IMG/VR virus record: IMGVR_UViG_3300011339_000664
Coordinates: 1-27,167 of that record
From: a virus
Lineage: Duplodnaviria > Caudoviricetes
Reading direction: 5' to 3' (one strand)
Length of the DNA stretch: 27,167 bases
The first letter of the stretch is position 1; each line of letters begins with the position of its first letter. Shown here in pieces: positions 4,081 through 11,214 of this stretch. The notes under the pieces are model-generated. The model was given only the letters and a program-made list of their open reading frames with translations. It ran no database searches and was not told the DNA's origin. Both the position numbers and the translations under genes were made by a program.

Positions 4081-5604
4081 TTAAGACCCCATCCATGAGT
4101 TATGCACTGCGCTGCCTTGGGAGTTAACGCGGCGTGTCGGCTCAGTATACTCGCGGTGGGCCACGGGAAAAGCAAACGTCACGCAAATAGCGTCCGCTGC
4201 GTCTGGTGATGCAAGGCCCCGCGATTTCATATCTTTCTTGCTCTCCAAGAAAATGGTTCCACGTGAATCAGGCTTCATCTTAGGCGAAATCAAGTCCGTC
4301 TTCAAGAACCTGTCTGTCGGAATACTAGCAGATTTTAGCCACTCCCGCATCTCGCCCCACATCTGGGCGCGCATATTTCCGTACATTATCGGGTTTTTCG
4401 CCTTATTCCCGAAGTTTATGCCCTTGATTTTGTACCGCTGCTCCTTGAGCCTGTCCACGATCCCAGCGCCCAGCCCACCCTCGTCGATCACCACCAGCGT
4501 CGGCTTGTACTCCTCTATGGCCTCAATGACGTGCCCGACCACCGTCATAGTGTCGTCGCCCCGATGCCGCGCTATATGCACGATGTCCCGCCCCTGGCGC
4601 ACGGCGATGACCGTGGCGTCGGCGCCGTAGCGCGCCGGATCAACCCCAATGATAATCGGCGCCGACAGGTCTTTGTACCGCTCCCGCTTCATGGCCTCGT
4701 CCACCACGTCCGCTGGAATGAACTGGTCATCCCCCGCGCTGGGGAACATCCCGTAGACCTCAACGTGCGCCTGACTGCTGTCTGCGCCGTACTCCTGAAT
4801 GATCCGCTCGTAGACCTGTTTGTCGGTGCCCTCGACCGTGCGGGCGTCTACCACCTTGGTTTTCCAGAATTCCCGCTTGGAGTTAAACGCCTCGTAGAAG
4901 TACCCCGTGTTGCGCCGGGGGTTGGAGAACGCCAGCCAGAACCTGTTGGGCGTGTTCTCGGTGAAGAACCCGCTGGTCACCGCCCAGATCGCGTCGGCGA
5001 TACCACTGGCCTCGTCGAAGATCACCAGCACCCCGTCGTAGTTATGCACCCCAGCGTAGGCGTCTGGGTTCTCCTCCGACCACAGCCGCCCCTCGACGCC
5101 CCAGTAGCGCGTGCCCTTCTTGAGGTCACGCTCGACCAGTTCGGTTAGCCACTTGGCCGGCATCAGCCGAGTGGCGCTGACCTCAAACCAGTGCGAGTTG
5201 AGCGACATCGCCAGCCACTTGGTGATCTCGGCCCAGGTGATGCTGCGCAGTTGGGACTCCGAGTTGGCCGAGATGATGGTCGATGACCCGATGCGGGTGG
5301 ACAGCATCCAGATCGTGACCCAACTGACCAGGGCCGACTTGCCAATACCGCGCCCCGACGAGATCGCCTCTTGCAGCACGTTGAAGTCCACCTGCCCCTT
5401 GTTTTCTTGGATGTGGTCGGCGATGTCTTGCAGCACCTCGCGCTGCCACTTGCGCGGCCCCTTGAAGTGTTCCAGCGGCGTGCCCTTGACGCCCCACGGG
5501 AACACCAGCATCACAAAGTTCAGCGGGCTGTCTTTGATGCGCGGCGTCCACAGACGCGCCATCAGTTCCTGTTCGTCTTCAGCGCTGTATCTGGTGGACT
5601 GCAT
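4081..5604 (-). CDS. terL: Terminase large subunit (507 aa)
   Basis: Walker A SGRGIGKS, Walker [10 protein letters not shown], coupling motif SNP, RNase H-like nuclease acidic motifs [17 protein letters not shown] and SPDAADA. GAGG SD before ATG 5604. Confidence 0.95.
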
Positions 5605-5989
5605 CGACAACCTCAATTACGCGCAATTCGGCTTCTTGAAGCGCTTGGGTGATAGAAATGCGCTGGTCGATGTCCACCGAGATGGACTGCTTGGCCACCC
5701 AGCCGTGTTGGTGCTTGAGGACTTCAAGCGCCGCCTTGGCGTCGCCCTCTAACGCTGCTTTGCGCAGTATCTGGGCCATCTCGCGTTCGCCGTCGGCTTT
5801 GCCCTTGTCTGCGGCCATCTTGGCCAGTGGGTCAAATTGGCACAAATGGTGGTACTCATCAGGTCGCATTCCAGAAGCAAGCGCCAGAGTGTCGCCCTTG
5901 AGCCCCAGCCTACCGGCGTCGTAAATTGCTTGCAAGCGCGACTCAGTGGCCTTGACATGGCGGACTGTAAGCGGCAGTGACTTGAACAT
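5579..5989 (-). CDS. terS: Terminase small subunit (136 aa)
   Basis: AAGGAGAA SD before ATG 5989. HTH-like N-half (GDTLALASGMRPDEY), helical oligomerisation segment (GDAKAALEVLKHQHGW), overlaps the terL start. Confidence 0.8.
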   Translation of the reverse strand: MFKSLPLTVRHVKATESRLQAIYDAGRLGLKGDTLALASGMRPDEYHHLCQFDPLAKMAADKGKADGEREMAQILRKAALEGDAKAALEVLKHQHGWVAKQSISVDIDQRISITQALQEAELRVIEVVDAVHQIQR

Positions 5990-6021: not shown

Positions 6022-6045
6022 AGTTTATACCAAAAAAAATTTTGT
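6022..6045 (-). promoter_or_regulatory. Putative late promoter (extended -10 TGGTATAAACT preceded by an A/T tract)
   Basis: Minus strand reads AAAATTTTTTTTGGTATAAACT about 33 nt upstream of the terS ATG. No clear -35. Confidence 0.5.
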
Positions 6046-6119
6046 TTGTGGCCCCTCCGTCAACGTTGGCCCTTCCGCTCGGCCCTACCCGGGTGGCCTC
6101 GAGCAAAAAGCGATTGAGC

Positions 6120-6271
6120 GCCAGGCCGGCAGGCCGATGGCCAGGCAGGCCGATGGCCAGGCAGGCCGGCAGGCCGGCAGGCCGGCAGGCCGGCAGGCCG
6201 GCAGGCCGGCAGGCCGATGGCCAGGCAGGCCGGCAGGCCGATGGCCAGGCAGGCCGGCAGGCCGATGGCCT
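6120..6271. repeat. Tandem array of 19 octamers of two types, GGCAGGCC (A) and GATGGCCA (B)
   Basis: Parsed by hand as A' A B A B A A A A A A A B A A B A A B' (13 perfect A, 4 perfect B, plus GCCAGGCC and GATGGCCT). Every unit contains GGCC. Confidence 0.95.
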
Positions 6272-6276
6272 GGCGG

Positions 6277-6632
6277 TGTTGGCTATGTTGGCTATGCCAA
6301 CGCCATCGGTGCGCAGGCCGATGGCCATCGGACCATGTTGGCCATGTTGGCTATTTGATTTGCATGGCCAACATGGCCTAAATAATGCGCCAGCGCAGCG
6401 CGCAGTTTTATGCGTGGATCATGGGGGCGTGGGTCACATTGGCACTTTAGACAGCCAATTTAAATCGCTACAGCTAAAACACATACATTTCACATTATGA
6501 AATATATAGATAATCTGTTTTTAAGATATATAAACAAATAGCCAATATAGCCAACAAGCTACATTTTGAGAGGAGCGCAGCACAATGCAACCACGCCAAC
6601 ACAGCACCCACACAATCGCCAACAGCACCCAC
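6277..6632. repeat. Iteron-like TGTTGGC(T/C)A repeats, direct and inverted, flanking an AT-rich core; putative replication origin
   Basis: Direct copies at 6277, 6286, 6336 and 6345. Perfect 14-bp inverted repeat 6333-6346/6363-6376. 22/25 inverted repeat 6336-6360/6532-6556. 14-bp palindrome 6318-6331. AT-rich stretch ~6457-6540. Direct repeat CGCCAAC(AC)AGCACCCAC at 6594 and 6617. Origin function is inferred. Confidence 0.6.
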
Positions 6633-6678
6633 TAAAACAGCCAATGCGTACAATTCTATAAATTGTCACCATCTAAAC

Positions 6679-6722
6679 TGTAAAGAAATCTATTACAATA
6701 CAACCATGGCAACATCGCCATG
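6679..6722 (+). promoter_or_regulatory. Putative early promoter with operator-like TGTAA-N9-TTACA and a 5' hairpin
   Basis: TACAAT at 6694-6699 overlaps the right arm of TGTAA(6679-83)...TTACA(6693-97). CATGGC-AACATC-GCCATG hairpin at 6705-6722. AAAGG SD before ATG 6746. Confidence 0.5.
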
Positions 6723-6745
6723 CAATAAAGTAAAGGCAAATCACC

Positions 6746-7501
6746 ATGACTAAAATTCTAGGCTACATCGCATACGAGGGCCCCAGCAAAATAGACGGCG
6801 CGCCCATTGTCGTTATCATCAATAAAATCACCGACGCTAGTAAGAACGAGAAAACCGGCGCGCTGGTGCAGTCGTTCATTATTCGGTCCGACGTTAACCC
6901 GGTCCAAGCACTGCAAACCGGCGCCGATGCAAGCATATGCGGCGATTGTGTGCACCGGCCGATCACAGCGAAGGAAACCGGCGATCCACCATGCTATGTG
7001 CAGGTGGCCAAATCGGTGCTATCGGTTTACAACGCATATAAACGAGGCCGCTATGTTAAGGCGGACCCGGCCACAATCGCGCGCGCACTGGCCGGTAAAG
7101 TAGTGCGCATTGGCACTTATGGCGATGGCGCGGCCGCACCAGTGCGGATGTGGACCCAAATAACCCGATACGCGGCCGGCGTGCGTGGATATTCGCACCA
7201 GTGGCAGAACAAGGGATTTGATCACGCCGCATGGGCGCCGCTAGTGATGGCCAGCGCCGATACCCTGGAACAAGCTGCATTGGCCAATCTTTACGGTATG
7301 CGGGTTTTCCGGGTATCAATCGGCGTGGATAAACAACCCGGCGAGACAGTATGCCCGGCCAGCGCCGAAGGCGGCCGCAAATCGACGTGCGTTAAATGCA
7401 CGCTATGCAGTGGCACCCGCGTCCAGGCGCGCGACGTAGTGATCGCCGATCACGCGGCCGGGCACGACCGGCGCCGCGTGATTATGATGGCCAGCGCATA
7501 A
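6746..7501 (+). CDS. Cys-rich radical-SAM-like protein of the GP88/DUF7227 type (251 aa), first early gene
   Basis: SKNEKTG, C-x2-C-x14-CY (ICGDC...PPCYV), VVRIGTYGD, GYSHQW, VMASAD and C-terminal CPAS-x8-CVKCTLC. Family recalled from the motif pattern, not searched. Confidence 0.65.
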   Translation: MTKILGYIAYEGPSKIDGAPIVVIINKITDASKNEKTGALVQSFIIRSDVNPVQALQTGADASICGDCVHRPITAKETGDPPCYVQVAKSVLSVYNAYKRGRYVKADPATIARALAGKVVRIGTYGDGAAAPVRMWTQITRYAAGVRGYSHQWQNKGFDHAAWAPLVMASADTLEQAALANLYGMRVFRVSIGVDKQPGETVCPASAEGGRKSTCVKCTLCSGTRVQARDVVIADHAAGHDRRRVIMMASA

Positions 7502-7512
7502 AGGGGCACATT

Positions 7513-7740
7513 ATGAGCATTAAGACTATGCGCGCACGTTACCCCGGCCGGTGCGCGGCCACTGGCGCGCCGTTTAAACCCGGCGCGCTGATTTATTACG
7601 ACGGTCGCACTAAACGTGCGACGCTGGCGCCGGTGGCCAATACCATAACGTTTATCGGCGAGCATGGCCCAACGACGTTTATTCGAAACGCGCGCGGCCG
7701 GTGCGAAGATGCACCATGTTGCGAATGCTGCACTATCTAG
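7513..7740 (+). CDS. Small Cys-rich putative metal-binding protein (75 aa)
   Basis: AAGGGG SD then ATG 7513. RARYPGRCAATG at the N-terminus and RCEDAPCCECC at the C-terminus. Confidence 0.8.
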   Translation: MSIKTMRARYPGRCAATGAPFKPGALIYYDGRTKRATLAPVANTITFIGEHGPTTFIRNARGRCEDAPCCECCTI

Positions 7741-7782
7741 GGTTATCTGCAAGCGCTGCGCGCCAGCGCTTGCGGGCTAATC
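7741..7782 (+). other. Long intergenic RNA stem-loop (possible RNase III processing site)
   Basis: GGTTA-TCT-GCAAGCGCTG-cgcgc-CAGCGCTTGC-GGG-c-TAATC: perfect 10-bp core extendable to ~18 bp with G-U pairs, no U-tract. Confidence 0.6.
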
Positions 7783-7811
7783 TTGGCCGATACAGTAAAT
7801 TGGAGTACATC

Positions 7812-8012
7812 ATGCGAAATTATGGGGAAACTAAAGCCCAGCGCCAAGCGCGCTACTTGGCCGAATTTAGCGACGCCGTCGTAAGCGCCGACCCTACGCA
7901 CGCTGGCCGGATCGAATGGCCAACGGCGCTACACTTTTATTTTACCGGCGTGCCGGTCGCCGACGCGGCGGCGCAATATGTGGCCAACCGTGCCGATGAG
8001 GTGGCCAAGTGA
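7812..8012 (+). CDS. Hypothetical early protein (66 aa)
   Basis: GGAG SD at 7802, ATG 7812 (MRNYGETKAQRQARYLAEF...). The track start at 7701 would run through the hairpin. Confidence 0.8.
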   Translation: MRNYGETKAQRQARYLAEFSDAVVSADPTHAGRIEWPTALHFYFTGVPVADAAAQYVANRADEVAK

Positions 8013-8143
8013 AGGCGGGCCAATATATCCACATTAGTCTATATGGCCGTCTTGAGCGCGTGCTAATTCTGGCCATACGTCGCGCCGGGACCATCGACGT
8101 GCAGCGCAGCGATGGCCAATGTTACAGAGTGAGCGGCCTATGA
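8009..8143 (+). CDS. Hypothetical early micro-protein (44 aa; not in track)
   Basis: GAGG SD, GTGA overlap with the upstream stop. MKAGQYIHISLYGRLERVLILAIRRAGTIDVQRSDGQCYRVSGL, with a small beta-barrel-like pattern. Confidence 0.7.
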   Translation: MKAGQYIHISLYGRLERVLILAIRRAGTIDVQRSDGQCYRVSGL

Positions 8144-8319
8144 TGCACCCGCTATTCGCGGCCATCCTACGGCCATACACACCACCACCACAACCGCCAG
8201 TGCAACCGACGCCGGAACAGATCGACCGGGCCATGATGGCCGATAAACTGACCCATGATGCGCGCCACGCGGCGCGCGCTATAACCCTGGAGCACCGTTA
8301 TGCTAAGCCTGAAAATTAA
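8140..8319 (+). CDS. Hypothetical Pro-rich early protein (59 aa)
   Basis: ATGA coupling to the previous ORF. MMHPLFAAILRPYTPPPQPPVQPTPEQ... Confidence 0.65.
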   Translation: MMHPLFAAILRPYTPPPQPPVQPTPEQIDRAMMADKLTHDARHAARAITLEHRYAKPEN

Positions 8320-8623
8320 TTCCACCACCTATAAACTGACATCCCTGGAGCGCGTGCTAGAGGTCCAAGCCCTGGCCAGCAAAATCACGGGTAAGCATAA
8401 GCCGGTGAAAAGCCGGGGCGCCGATAAACGTTTATTTCCGGCCTATGGGGAGACAATGAGCGCGGCCGAATACGTCAGCCAGTACTATGTTTTAAATTCG
8501 ACCCGGCGCAACTTTAAGGGCGGCGCGCCTTATGGCGACGCAAACCTGGCCGGGTTCTATGAGGGCTTGAGCGATCGCGTGAGCGTGCCCCAGGGCGTGG
8601 ACAGCGTGGAGGTGGAAGCATGA
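8300..8623 (+). CDS. Hypothetical early protein (107 aa)
   Basis: GGAG SD; tiles the operon and is ATGA-coupled to the next ORF. Confidence 0.75.
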   Translation: MLSLKINSTTYKLTSLERVLEVQALASKITGKHKPVKSRGADKRLFPAYGETMSAAEYVSQYYVLNSTRRNFKGGAPYGDANLAGFYEGLSDRVSVPQGVDSVEVEA

Positions 8624-8730
8624 CCCGGCAGCATTACACCCCCGACCCGGCGCCGCGCGACGCGGCCGGCATAGCCTTGGCCGTGGCCATCGGCCTGGCC
8701 CTGGCCGTTCTACTGGTGCGTTACTTATGA
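8620..8730 (+). CDS. Single-TM membrane micro-protein (36 aa; not in track)
   Basis: GGAGG SD, ATGA overlaps at both ends. MTRQHYTPDPAPRDAAGIALAVAIGLALAVLLVRYL. Confidence 0.75.
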   Translation: MTRQHYTPDPAPRDAAGIALAVAIGLALAVLLVRYL

Positions 8731-8879
8731 GCGCCGACGACCAGGCCCTAGCGGCCATCGCTACCGCGCGACGCCATTACTTGGACCGCATCACGCACTT
8801 GGAAGACGTGTTGCGCGCCCTGCTAGACGATGACAACGAGGAAACGCGCGCCGCCGCAAGGCGCGCGCTAGAGTGCTGA
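8727..8879 (+). CDS. Helical micro-protein with a single HEAT-like motif (50 aa; not in track)
   Basis: ATGA-coupled. MSADDQALAAIATARRHYLDRITHLEDVLRALLDDDNEETRAAARRALEC. Confidence 0.7.
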   Translation: MSADDQALAAIATARRHYLDRITHLEDVLRALLDDDNEETRAAARRALEC

Positions 8880-8935
8880 TACTCTTAGCGGCCATCCTGG
8901 CCGCGATCCTGGCGATCCTGCTCGATCTAGATTAG
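8873..8935 (+). CDS. Possible 20-aa hydrophobic peptide (MLILLAAILAAILAILLDLD)
   Basis: GTG overlapping the previous stop; fills the gap up to the terminator exactly. SD is weak. Confidence 0.5.
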   Translation: MLILLAAILAAILAILLDLD

Positions 8936-11214
8936 GCCCCTTCGGGGGCTTTTTCTATGGCCCTGCGCAGTTCTGAGCGCGTGCTATGCGCCAATTCGGG
9001 CGCGCAGAATATATGCTTTTTGGTTTGAAACTCGCGGGATGCTAGGCGCCCCATATCATGCCAGCCCGCCTCCTTGAGCGCGTGCAGTAGCGCGGCAGGC
9101 ACAATGCGCACGCCCTGGGGGGCGTATAGCTGCAACTCATCGCAGAGGGCGTAGAAGGGCGCGCCGACCACGCCAGCGCTGAACGCGCGCGCCCTGGAGC
9201 GGATCAGGTTAACGAGGAAGGACTCAGCGCCCGACATCCCATGCTCGACCATGATAGCCTTCGCTTCGGTGAACGGGGGCGTTGCGTTGGGGTTAAACGC
9301 TGACACGTCTCTGGTGTGCAGGTAATGCGCGACCGCCTCGAACCCGCTTCGCATGGTGTACCAGTTCCACATTCTGAGCGCGTCTGCTTCGGGCATTTTG
9401 GTCGCTTCAGACCATAGAACAAACCAGCGGCGATCTTCTGAGGGCAGGGAGATCGCCACCCGCTCATTGGAGAACGCGACCACGAACACGCGGTTGAGCG
9501 CTTGGTATGGGTGCAGGCCCTTGCGGTTGACTGTCAGCAACTCCGGGGGCGCCGCGATGATGGGCTTTAGGATGTTCTCCAACGCGCGCCGGTCTTTGGC
9601 CTCCGGCTGGCGCAGTTCTTGGATTTCCATCACTTCGCATTCGAGCGCATAGCCCCATTGACTGGTCAAGTCCTCGTTCTTGACCAACGAGCAATTGAGT
9701 TTGGCTTTGCCGCCTATGGCCCAAAAGAACGGCGCAAAGAGGGTGTCTTTGCCCGACCCGTGATTGCCGCCCATCAGGACGGCGTGGTTGATCTTATGGC
9801 TTGGGAACTGTACTTTATGGGCCAAGACGTTCAAGAGGTGTTCGCGCTCAAAGTCAATCGGCACCATGCGCTCGACATGGCGCAGCCACGGCGATGCGTC
9901 GCCGGCCACGGGCGCAGGGCGCGCATCGCGCCAGCGGTTGCCGTACACCAGCCCCTCACGCGACACCAGCACAGTCTCACACGCAGCGTAAGTGATGCCG
10001 ACCAAGGCGCGGGCGCCCTTGTCTTGGCGGTGTTCGTCGAACGCTACCGACGCCTCGACCTTGCCGTGTTTGCCGTGACGCGAACGGCAGTCGAAGTGTC
10101 TGAACATGGCGTTGAAGGGCTTGCGCATCAGTTCGCGCCGGTCTTGCCTATCAAAATAAGAGTCGTCGTCTTGGATGTACGCAAACCGCTCGAACCACCC
10201 GCTCATCTCCACGCGGCCCAACTCGCGCCGCTCCACCTCGGCGATGACCGCAGCGGCCTCGTCGGGGTATTCTACATTAGGGGTCAGCTTGGCGAGGGTG
10301 TTCTCCATCACGGCGGCCAGCAACTCATCGCGCAGGCCGTGGGCGCGCTTGGGACCGCCCTGCTCCTCGACCCACGCCAAGTAGGCCACGCTGTCCAACT
10401 CGGAGCAATGCTCATGCAGGCAGCAGTAGGCGCGGCTCACGGGGTTGTATCGGCCCATCGGGTTGCCGTCTGAATGCTCGCCGTGATTGGGGCAGACCAC
10501 GCCCCACCAGCCGCTGGAATTGCCCTTCTCCAGCAGGTCGCCACGCGCAGCAGCCCACGCCAGCACATCGTCGCCGCCGTCGTCGGTGAGGCGTATGGGG
10601 CGCACTGTGGCGGTGTCGGCAGGGTGGGGCGTCACGCCCAGCGCCTCGCATATCTGGGGCAGGGCGAACTCACGCTCGGGGTGGAACTCGACAAGGCGGG
10701 AAACAAAGTCCTCGCGGCCTGGTTTGAGGTTGACCGAGCCGGGCAGCCGGAAGTTGCGCACTGGGTTGATGGCCCCGCCGTCGGTGTAGCCGGCCTCGGC
10801 GATGGCCACGATAGCGGCGCTGAAGTCGGCCTTCATCGGCTGGTCGTCCAGCGCGAAAGTGTAGCCGTACTGGTAATTGTTGGGGCTGGTCTCCATGATC
10901 CACGTCGGGGCGATGGGCGGCTCCTTGGCCTTGGTGCCCACGTCGTCCAGCACGAGGAAGGCGACCCGCTCGCAGTTGTCGGCGCGGGCAGAGGGCTTGC
11001 CCTGGTCAAATCGGTCAATGATGAAACAGCCGGTATTGGCGTACCACGCTTGGTCGGGCTTCCATCTCTTGGGCAAGTAGGCCGGCCAAGTGCACTTAAT
11101 GGCGCCGTCCGCATGGTATTGCAACTCGCCCTCGGCCAGTATGGGCTTTTGGCGCACAAACAAAATGACCTCGCCCTCGGGCGCCACGTCTTCGAGATAT
11201 TTTAAGAAACTCAT
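8932..11214 (-). CDS. Primase-helicase: RepB-type AEP primase, Zn-ribbon and SF3/DUF5906-type helicase (760 aa)
   Basis: FLVLDDVG, WIMETSPNNYQYGY and RNFRLPGSVNLK (RepB'-like primase); CPNHGEH...CLHEHC; Walker A GNHGSGKDT. Start at 11214 by ATGA overlap with the polymerase stop. Confidence 0.88.
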   Translation of the reverse strand: MSFLKYLEDVAPEGEVILFVRQKPILAEGELQYHADGAIKCTWPAYLPKRWKPDQAWYANTGCFIIDRFDQGKPSARADNCERVAFLVLDDVGTKAKEPPIAPTWIMETSPNNYQYGYTFALDDQPMKADFSAAIVAIAEAGYTDGGAINPVRNFRLPGSVNLKPGREDFVSRLVEFHPEREFALPQICEALGVTPHPADTATVRPIRLTDDGGDDVLAWAAARGDLLEKGNSSGWWGVVCPNHGEHSDGNPMGRYNPVSRAYCCLHEHCSELDSVAYLAWVEEQGGPKRAHGLRDELLAAVMENTLAKLTPNVEYPDEAAAVIAEVERRELGRVEMSGWFERFAYIQDDDSYFDRQDRRELMRKPFNAMFRHFDCRSRHGKHGKVEASVAFDEHRQDKGARALVGITYAACETVLVSREGLVYGNRWRDARPAPVAGDASPWLRHVERMVPIDFEREHLLNVLAHKVQFPSHKINHAVLMGGNHGSGKDTLFAPFFWAIGGKAKLNCSLVKNEDLTSQWGYALECEVMEIQELRQPEAKDRRALENILKPIIAAPPELLTVNRKGLHPYQALNRVFVVAFSNERVAISLPSEDRRWFVLWSEATKMPEADALRMWNWYTMRSGFEAVAHYLHTRDVSAFNPNATPPFTEAKAIMVEHGMSGAESFLVNLIRSRARAFSAGVVGAPFYALCDELQLYAPQGVRIVPAALLHALKEAGWHDMGRLASREFQTKKHIFCAPELAHSTRSELRRAIEKAPEGA
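8934..8954 (+). terminator. Rho-independent terminator of the early operon
   Basis: AGGCCCC-TTCG-GGGGC-TTTTT with a C(UUCG)G tetraloop, embedded in the last codons of the convergent primase gene. Confidence 0.85.

Follow-up and report, generated by a model that had tools for sequence, protein, structure and literature searches.

What does a phage genome avoid, and what does it tolerate, in the DNA that a host may meet first? This question is raised by an island in IMG/VR record IMGVR_UViG_3300011339_000664, of which positions 1 to 27,167 were analyzed as one stretch (hereafter the window). The record represents a 72%-complete virus, a podophage with a P22-type portal, terminase, and ejection proteins, and further window genes encode a primase-helicase, PolA, DUF2800, an SNF2 helicase, and a lysozyme. 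Near-identical DNA occurs in river and lake sequencing runs, and the relatives described below make up a large group of uncultured freshwater phages. The island, here called the leader, lies on the plus strand between the terminase small-subunit gene terS (5579-5989) and the 3' end of the primase (8932). An earlier reading of the sequence alone (the sequence-only reading) had proposed that it is a first-injected leader of low vocabulary that avoids defence target sites. We found that asymmetric restriction motifs are depleted in the leader, that palindromic motifs purged from the core genes return there, and that both changes fade with distance from a conserved junction. The features needed to follow this argument are listed below.

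6087 to 9191: zone of the reciprocal signature, with asymmetric motifs (ending in AAG, CAG, or GAG) depleted on both strands and palindromes released; it fades in the primase 3' end.
5579 to 5989, minus strand: probable terminase small subunit (terS), named by its position upstream of terL; no family match.
6032 to 6086: conserved junction motif, A-tract/T-tract ... CCGT ... GGCCC ... CGGCCCT, usually followed by a C-tract.
6746 to 7501, plus strand: first gene, 251 amino acids (aa), phrog_2554, related to DUF7227/GP88.

In the window, CTC is absent from the plus strand between 6101 and 8881 (2,781 nucleotides [nt]) while GAG occurs 27 times. The next CTC-free run of the window measures 1,328 nt, and no other trimer is absent from the window for more than 1,505 nt; when the leader genes were recoded with the phage's core codons, a mean of 19 CTC and a minimum of 8 were obtained in 1,000 runs. 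Six-base palindromes occur at 35.3 per kb in the zone versus 8.5 per kb elsewhere (32.7 when the tandem array described below is left out), and the densities of CCGG, GGCC, CGCG, and GCGC in the zone exceed those elsewhere two- to fourfold. The strand-specific avoidance that had been claimed stands for the window, but not for its relatives: locus L005, whose first gene is 91% identical, has 11 CTC, and the longest CTC-free run in any relative is 1,914 nt. Type III systems require two opposed sites and can be evaded by strand bias (PMC10644984); the confinement of GAG to one strand in the window may have this cause. The proposed low vocabulary proved slight (595 versus 641 distinct 5-mers per 1,400 nt) and was seen in just 25 of 44 loci.

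Relatives were collected with the first gene as query, keeping the best 80 of 216 loci retrieved (set 1). With the window added there were 81 loci; leader and core DNA sufficed in 57 of them, and dereplication reduced these to 44. In 71 of the 80, terL or terS matches lay left of the first gene. Restriction motifs were taken from the site list of Biopython (617 distinct sites), whose asymmetric sites we take to belong mostly to Type IIG/IIS/III enzymes that mark DNA with N6-methyladenine, with few classical Type I sites and no BREX (bacteriophage exclusion) sites. The sequence-only reading had asked whether homologues of 6746-7501 sit in similarly biased regions; a bias was found in all 44 loci. 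Among leader dinucleotides, AG and CT were lower in 44/44 loci, GA in 43, and TC in 36, and AT, TA, and CG were higher in 44 and GC in 43; TT was unchanged, with TTT/AAA up. Six-base palindromes reached 254 per 10 kb in the leader, compared with 73 in the core and 156 in random sequence, and for palindromic Type IIP sites the leader has 3.5 times the density of core genes. Core genes were depleted of palindromic sites (median log2 observed/expected [O/E] of -0.67 to -0.86) and not of asymmetric ones. The leader showed the reverse, with a loss of asymmetric sites beyond that of letter-shuffled motifs (0/40), and 48 bipartite motifs showed the same leader depletion (0/30). Avoidance of defence target sites thus holds for asymmetric motifs, but palindromic Type IIP sites are enriched. 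CCGCGG was absent from leader and core samples of the 44-locus set, whereas most palindromes return in the leader.

The two halves of this signature were retained when coding constraints were held fixed. Under an amino-acid-preserving null for the 44 loci, core palindromes stood at 0.44 (below 1 in 44/44) and core asymmetric sites at 0.99 (26/44), and in the first gene the corresponding values were 1.48 (11/44) and 0.72 (44/44). The other leader open reading frames (ORFs), a mechanically called set in which some frames may be false, gave 1.17 for palindromes and 0.79 for asymmetric sites (below 1 in 43/43). The losses also resemble the motifs themselves. Among 268 asymmetric 6-7-mers, 102 end in GAG, CAG, AAG, or RAG and 3 in TAG; in leader genes GAG stands at 0.52, CAG at 0.70, and AAG at 0.81, whereas TAG stands at 1.38. 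The more often one of the 16 A-centred trimers surrounds the penultimate A of a listed motif, the more it tends to be depleted (Spearman -0.72, p 0.0016). Under a trimer-matched null covering all leader ORFs of the 44 loci and 55 random core pieces, real motifs were scarcer in the leader than either shuffled controls or controls with the same 3' end (0/100 each), which was not the case in the core (26/100, 22/100).

For palindromes in the first gene, selection of core strength predicts 0.47-0.50 and no selection predicts 1.04-1.10; the observed value was 1.64 (11 of 44 loci). After trimer matching, palindromes stood at 1.03-1.21 in the leader and 0.39 in the core (22 of 44 loci). Taken together, these results indicate that palindrome avoidance is switched off in the leader, with a mild excess at most. 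Synonymous sites of the 44 first genes are near saturation (identity 0.46), with palindromes at 203 positions, so the release is maintained rather than inherited.

The signature, which is present at synonymous sites and in non-coding DNA, is also polar, with none in terS, a peak in the first gene, and a fade through later ORFs. In terS, O/E for VAG (AAG, CAG, or GAG) was 1.11/0.92 and palindromes stood at 0.45 (34 loci), and terS forms a sharp left boundary because the leader signature is absent from it. VAG and palindromes were 0.69/0.53 and 1.57 in the first gene, 0.85/0.76 and 0.77 in distal leader ORFs, and 0.82/0.83 and 0.84 in the final 300 nt of the primase, a gene read in the opposite direction, with baseline reached by about 1.2 kb. 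The fade extends into the last 300-600 nt of the primase 3' end, and in the first 500 non-coding nt GAG/CTC stood at 0.34 (33/33 loci). Since the bias is shared by non-coding DNA and by the opposite-strand primase end, it follows position and not the transcription unit. The sequence-only reading had placed a strong terminator where the bias ends; the terminator is present (8934-8956), but the bias continues to about 9191, fading inside the primase.

The junction motif was matched by regular expression in 56 of 81 loci, and an estimated 260 or so IMG/VR stretches carry it. With the motif alone as query, we drew 120 of these stretches (40 with short flanks). Of the 117 new ones recovered again, terS or terL was present in 95 and 2.5 kb of rightward sequence in 50, and 46 were left after dereplication (set 2). 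Although the first gene is missing from 41 of these 46 loci, onset and decay were as in set 1, and the onset coincides with the junction motif. In a paired test (n = 35), palindromes were up in 31, asymmetric sites down in 33, and VAG down in 35. Among our material, which consists of contigs, L041 begins at the C-tract that follows the motif. The motif may be a packaging or end signal.

The reading that we favor, at a probability of roughly 0.6, is that the leader is likely the first-entering end of a fixed-end genome and was likely shaped by asymmetric-site defences that an early phage product later switches off. First-entering behavior is suggested, indirectly, by the polar gradient from a conserved junction, and further by asymmetric depletion like that of T5, and by the homologues in early regions of cultured phages. 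An early, probably first-entering module with asymmetric-site loss is well supported by the sequence; where injection begins, which systems select, and what the first gene does are inferences. A genome end probably lies at 6032-6086, in which case DNA would enter via the early operon, with the terS end last. Systems resembling Type I, IIG, III, or BREX would then, quite probably, disfavor sites only in DNA that has entered before early proteins act; core genes would hence keep asymmetric sites, yet would still have to avoid Type IIP palindromes. The weakest step is that the predicted DUF7227/GP88-type iron-sulfur protein would belong to a set of early genes that can replace one another in counter-defence or host takeover and would possibly act on SAM (S-adenosylmethionine), and a role of the first gene as a SAM-directed inhibitor is rather doubtful. 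Palindromes would cost little or nothing in the zone, most simply because a cut there would be survivable or the zone briefly shielded. Brief shielding of entering DNA has been reported for T7. Candidate causes of the release are survivable cuts in a redundant end, shielding, weakened selection, and bait.

Several results weigh against this reading. At the dinucleotide level the correlation with listed motifs is not significant (p 0.14), and the leader effect beyond trimers is small (-0.23 versus -0.11 log2). In set 2, leader motifs fell just marginally below shuffled ones (3/50, 5/50) in a comparison made without the amino-acid control, the contrast came largely from the core, where real motifs exceeded shuffled ones (50/50), and palindromes were just half released.

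Earlier evidence for site avoidance in first-injected phage DNA concerned single motifs of a few cultured phages. Asymmetric sites are used by Type I, IIS, III, and BREX systems (PMC12707154). Murciaviruses are restricted solely by early-injected Type I sites, and headful packaging is not expected to go with avoidance of this kind (both PMC12455610); in T5-like phages, Type I and II sites confer sensitivity in first-step DNA only (PMC10644984). Our own scans of cultured phages used a base-composition null only, with T5, phiKMV, LUZ24, VLCpiM5a, and DSS3P8 scanned as 14-20-kb pieces. VAG stood at 0.73-0.91 in the annotated first-step DNA of T5 versus 1.03-1.22 beyond, with no palindrome rise. 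Both halves of the signature appeared in Mydovirus VLCpiM5a, mildly at the early ends of S2B, jiawei, Centaur, and CRP-403, and in the leader of DSL-LC05, a more distant metagenomic relative (terL 68%) that has been assigned to a proposed new family (PMC10611076). A Manatee Spring relative had raised palindromes alone, at the leader start; T7 and LUZ24 showed a slight asymmetric drop, phiKMV no VAG drop, and the DSS3P8 stretch an ambiguous signal, and scans of BPP-1, AF, and DU_RP_II gave no local signal.

Like the first-injected regions of T7/T3, T5-like phages, and murciaviruses (PMC12455610, PMC10644984), the leader combines small variable early genes, a host-type promoter, and local scarcity of asymmetric sites. 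Unlike those leaders, it avoids a whole word class and not single sites, and unlike T5 and T7 it carries a three- to fourfold palindrome excess over the core; the scarcity of palindromic Type II sites that would go with a T7/T3/T5-type leader was not found. The T7/T3 analogy drawn in the sequence-only reading is kept for first-entering behavior, but general site avoidance, strand specificity, and low vocabulary are not family traits. Plasmid leading regions, too, are anti-defence-rich first-entering DNA not consistently short of palindromes (PMC13478746); these are codon-adapted and not site-depleted, whereas here codons leave the usual optimum and asymmetric motifs are lost. We found no report of the reciprocal signature in the literature searched (main texts, with few subscription papers). 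Avoidance here is a class-wide and clade-wide gradient that separates two restriction pressures on one genome, and its counter-intuitive half is that the most exposed DNA tolerates palindromes purged from the rest; the release is the surprise. What protects entering DNA, and from which enzymes, becomes testable from sequence, and the signature offers an inexpensive way to mark where injection begins in uncultured phages.

The rival that survives best, although somewhat unlikely, holds that the leader is terminally redundant, as a long direct repeat or a headful overshoot from the motif, such that a palindromic cut is survivable and long-range asymmetric-site enzymes are lethal. The palindrome excess starts sharply and fades gradually, as such a redundancy would have it, and palindromes are raised in the first 5 kb of the Mydovirus, which we take to have a long terminal repeat. 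The longest clade contigs are mostly 36-39 kb, and a P22-type head holds more than this. However, the 10-kb repeat of T5 shows no palindrome rise, and the mild rise is also found in the short-repeat or cos-type phages S2B, jiawei, and Centaur.

An unlikely account of the whole signature, though one that may explain its palindrome half, is a local mutation regime (e.g., G/C loss next to A/T) combined with weak selection, in which recurrent sweeps of an arms-race region would wipe out weak selection, and palindrome avoidance and optimal codons would lapse although no selection acts on particular sites. Codons do shift to NAA/NAT, CTA, TTA, and ATA, leader GC is a few points below the core, trimer-matched palindromes are near neutral (1.21 and 1.03), and the motif-specific residue in set 2 is weak. 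This regime does not readily accommodate the rise of TAG while AAG, CAG, and GAG fall, a codon shift that is strong after A/T and slight after G/C, or the advantage of real motifs over trimer-matched and same-3'-end controls. Similarly doubtful is a division into two immunity zones, in which a widespread radical-SAM-like DUF7227/GP88 family, with thousands of clusters and a leading position in early regions of unrelated phages, would disarm SAM-dependent asymmetric-site defences. Only the first 3 kb would then have to hide from these defences, and the same stretch would be immune to, or bait for, palindrome cutters through some novel mechanism. Were this so, any uncultured phage genome could be searched by the reciprocal signature for its injection end and for candidate anti-defence genes.

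Positive selection of leader palindromes, as Type IIP bait or as sites drawing host methylation, is very unlikely. First-gene palindromes do exceed every neutral model tried (1.64 against 1.04-1.10; 1.21-1.34 in 22 of 44 loci), and 4-bp palindromes stand at 1.17-1.20 after trimer matching, but the other leader ORFs are at 1.03, CCGCGG is missing from leader and core alike, and unmethylated bait would be expected to be cut. An ordinary variable early operon, with composition set by translation tuning, avoidance of UV lesions, or recent gene uptake, agrees with the turnover of gene content and with codon-adapted plasmid leading regions (PMC13478746), but is largely refuted, as TAT, CAT, GAT, CTA, and ATA rise opposite to the usual translational optimum, TT is unchanged with TTT/AAA up, the first gene, its synonymous sites near saturation, has long been in the clade, and the bias extends to non-coding DNA and the primase tail.

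Which early product might act on host defences leads to the first gene, which the sequence-only reading had called radical-SAM-like. Residues C65, C68, C83-Y84, C203, C215, C218, C221, and H236 are invariant, and C65, C68, and C83, which follow the predicted first barrel strand, are invariant in 121/121 family members, giving three cluster-type cysteines where a radical-SAM enzyme would have them. The canonical CxxxCxxC motif was found in 0/121 members, and PF04055 was unmatched in the window. In a structure search of 48,161 chains, the 12 best matches were all radical-SAM-fold entries of weak likeness (rank 12 being a DUF512 entry), and the protein is predicted to have a beta/alpha fold weakly like radical-SAM enzymes such as QueE, pyruvate formate-lyase activase, and viperin. 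The claim thus survives as a weak fold likeness with three invariant cysteines. The product is predicted to be an iron-sulfur protein and may blunt host defences.

Profile and fold comparisons support full-length homology to DUF7227 (PF23872) and GP88 (PF17338). The Pfam score was 24 bits, below the cut-off of 27, but 69 of the 121 members match at E up to 0.01, hhalign gave 94% over 183 columns with a DUF7227 protein, and Foldseek gave E values of 1e-6 to a DUF7227 model and 4e-3 to a GP88 model, with atlas clusters also linking them. Common to DUF7227, GP88, and phrog_2554 are an N-terminal S-N-K-T-G, a cysteine triad ending in C-Y, an R-x-G/x-GD strand, and a C-terminal CP-x-CxxCxxC and H-G. 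The first gene nevertheless forms a subfamily apart, under the Pfam cut-off and at 3.7% in profile comparison with GP88, and this subfamily comprises 3,270 clusters at 50% identity. In set-2 leaders without the first gene, a true DUF7227 protein is present in 5/46 (L143:2364-3023, minus strand) and GP88 in 4/46 (L091:2567-3223, minus strand); three related cysteine-rich subfamilies share the leader region. Close homologues adjoin a different terminase in L022, L067, L074, and L018 and different replication genes in L026 and L053, and therefore the leader module moves between backbones. Among cultured phages, homologues precede the RNA polymerase in three Autographiviridae and lie third from the end in phage Centaur. 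Of the 50 homologues listed (of 152 records), 32 lie at most 5 kb from a record end and point inward. No report of a function for the DUF7227/GP88/phrog_2554 family was found in the literature searched, which covered few subscription papers; this large, unstudied family of predicted iron-sulfur proteins is a candidate early counter-defence enzyme. L085 (OR464703.1) carries the label Mycobacterium phage jiawei, but its genes are ordered as in Caulobacter phage S2B, one of the Autographiviridae with an integrase, and its host label may need checking.

The remaining features of the leader are as follows.

About 6119 to 6272, plus strand: tandem array with an 8-bp period, CAGGCCGG x17.9.
6273 to 6560: 9-bp repeats of TGTTGGCTA type, direct and inverted; relatives hold related 9-mers.
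6677 to 6699, plus strand: putative host-type promoter, with -10 TACAAT at 6694-6699 and a poor -35 in the window.
7513 to 7740, plus strand: 75-aa ORF with a CxxxxCCxCC-type cysteine cluster at its C-terminal end (phrog_5664, 4e-8; phrog_2656, 2e-6).
7737 to 7786, plus strand: long intergenic hairpin of about 22 bp.
7812-8012, 8009-8143, 8140-8319, 8300-8623, 8620-8730, and 8727-8879, plus strand: coupled small ORFs with overlapping stop/start junctions.
8873 to 8935, plus strand: possible hydrophobic ORF of 20 codons.
8934 to 8956, plus strand: intrinsic-terminator-like hairpin and U-tract facing the primase 3' end (z -2.6, 1/200 shuffles).

Much of the architecture described in the sequence-only reading was seen again, including the divergence point beside the minus-strand terS, the low-complexity array, the long hairpin, and the coupled micro-ORFs. 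Arrays occupy the same slot in 29/33 loci with units that differ even between close relatives; the slot is conserved and the repeat unit is not. Between motif and promoter, 9-bp units (TGTGGACAA, TTTGGGTCA, TGTAAGTCA, TGTTGGCTA) recur in direct and inverted copies in the window and relatives and are putative protein-binding sites, perhaps for terminase or an origin.

The host-type promoter was only partly borne out. A -10 of TACA(C/A)T with AATC upstream occurs in 23/44 loci and on the opposite strand in 0/44, and several relatives have TTGACA as -35, but the window -35 is poor and a consensus promoter scan listed no promoter in front of the first gene. The window -10 sits within an inverted repeat, TGTAA-N9-TTACA, which is retained in several relatives and is a possible operator. 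With the closing terminator, the leader has the sequence of an inward early operon. The hairpin at 7737-7786, a candidate RNase III substrate in the sequence-only reading, is stable (-33.8 kcal/mol over 7735-7815, z -3.2, 1/200 shuffles) and had no match in an Rfam search. Homologues of the 75-aa ORF occur in relatives, the small ORFs of 7812-8935 had no family match above cut-off, and the family of ORF 8300-8623 is present in 17/46 motif-selected loci. Neither Ocr nor a SAM-lyase was among the Pfam and PHROG matches of the eight leader ORFs (profile searches only) or the NCBIfam matches of the first gene's family, and profile search found no phage RNA polymerase homologue in the window, a 72% fragment.

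Gene content of the leader turns over between relatives. An acidic 108-aa protein (L102:4582-4905, plus strand; phrog_9974, no named match) occurs in 11/46 leaders and is, by composition alone, a candidate DNA mimic. DNA methyltransferase genes are present in some leaders (L159:5532-6128, plus strand, phrog_757; L082 [MW202483] 30041-31018, annotated as a C5 methyltransferase). A leader gene of 8/46 loci (L140:3388-4053, plus strand) matches phrog_3007 and, weakly, the polymerase processivity factor phrog_947. Inside the window primase, at 9981-10148, the same five positions differ in all four runs compared, reflecting either a strain difference or an assembly error.

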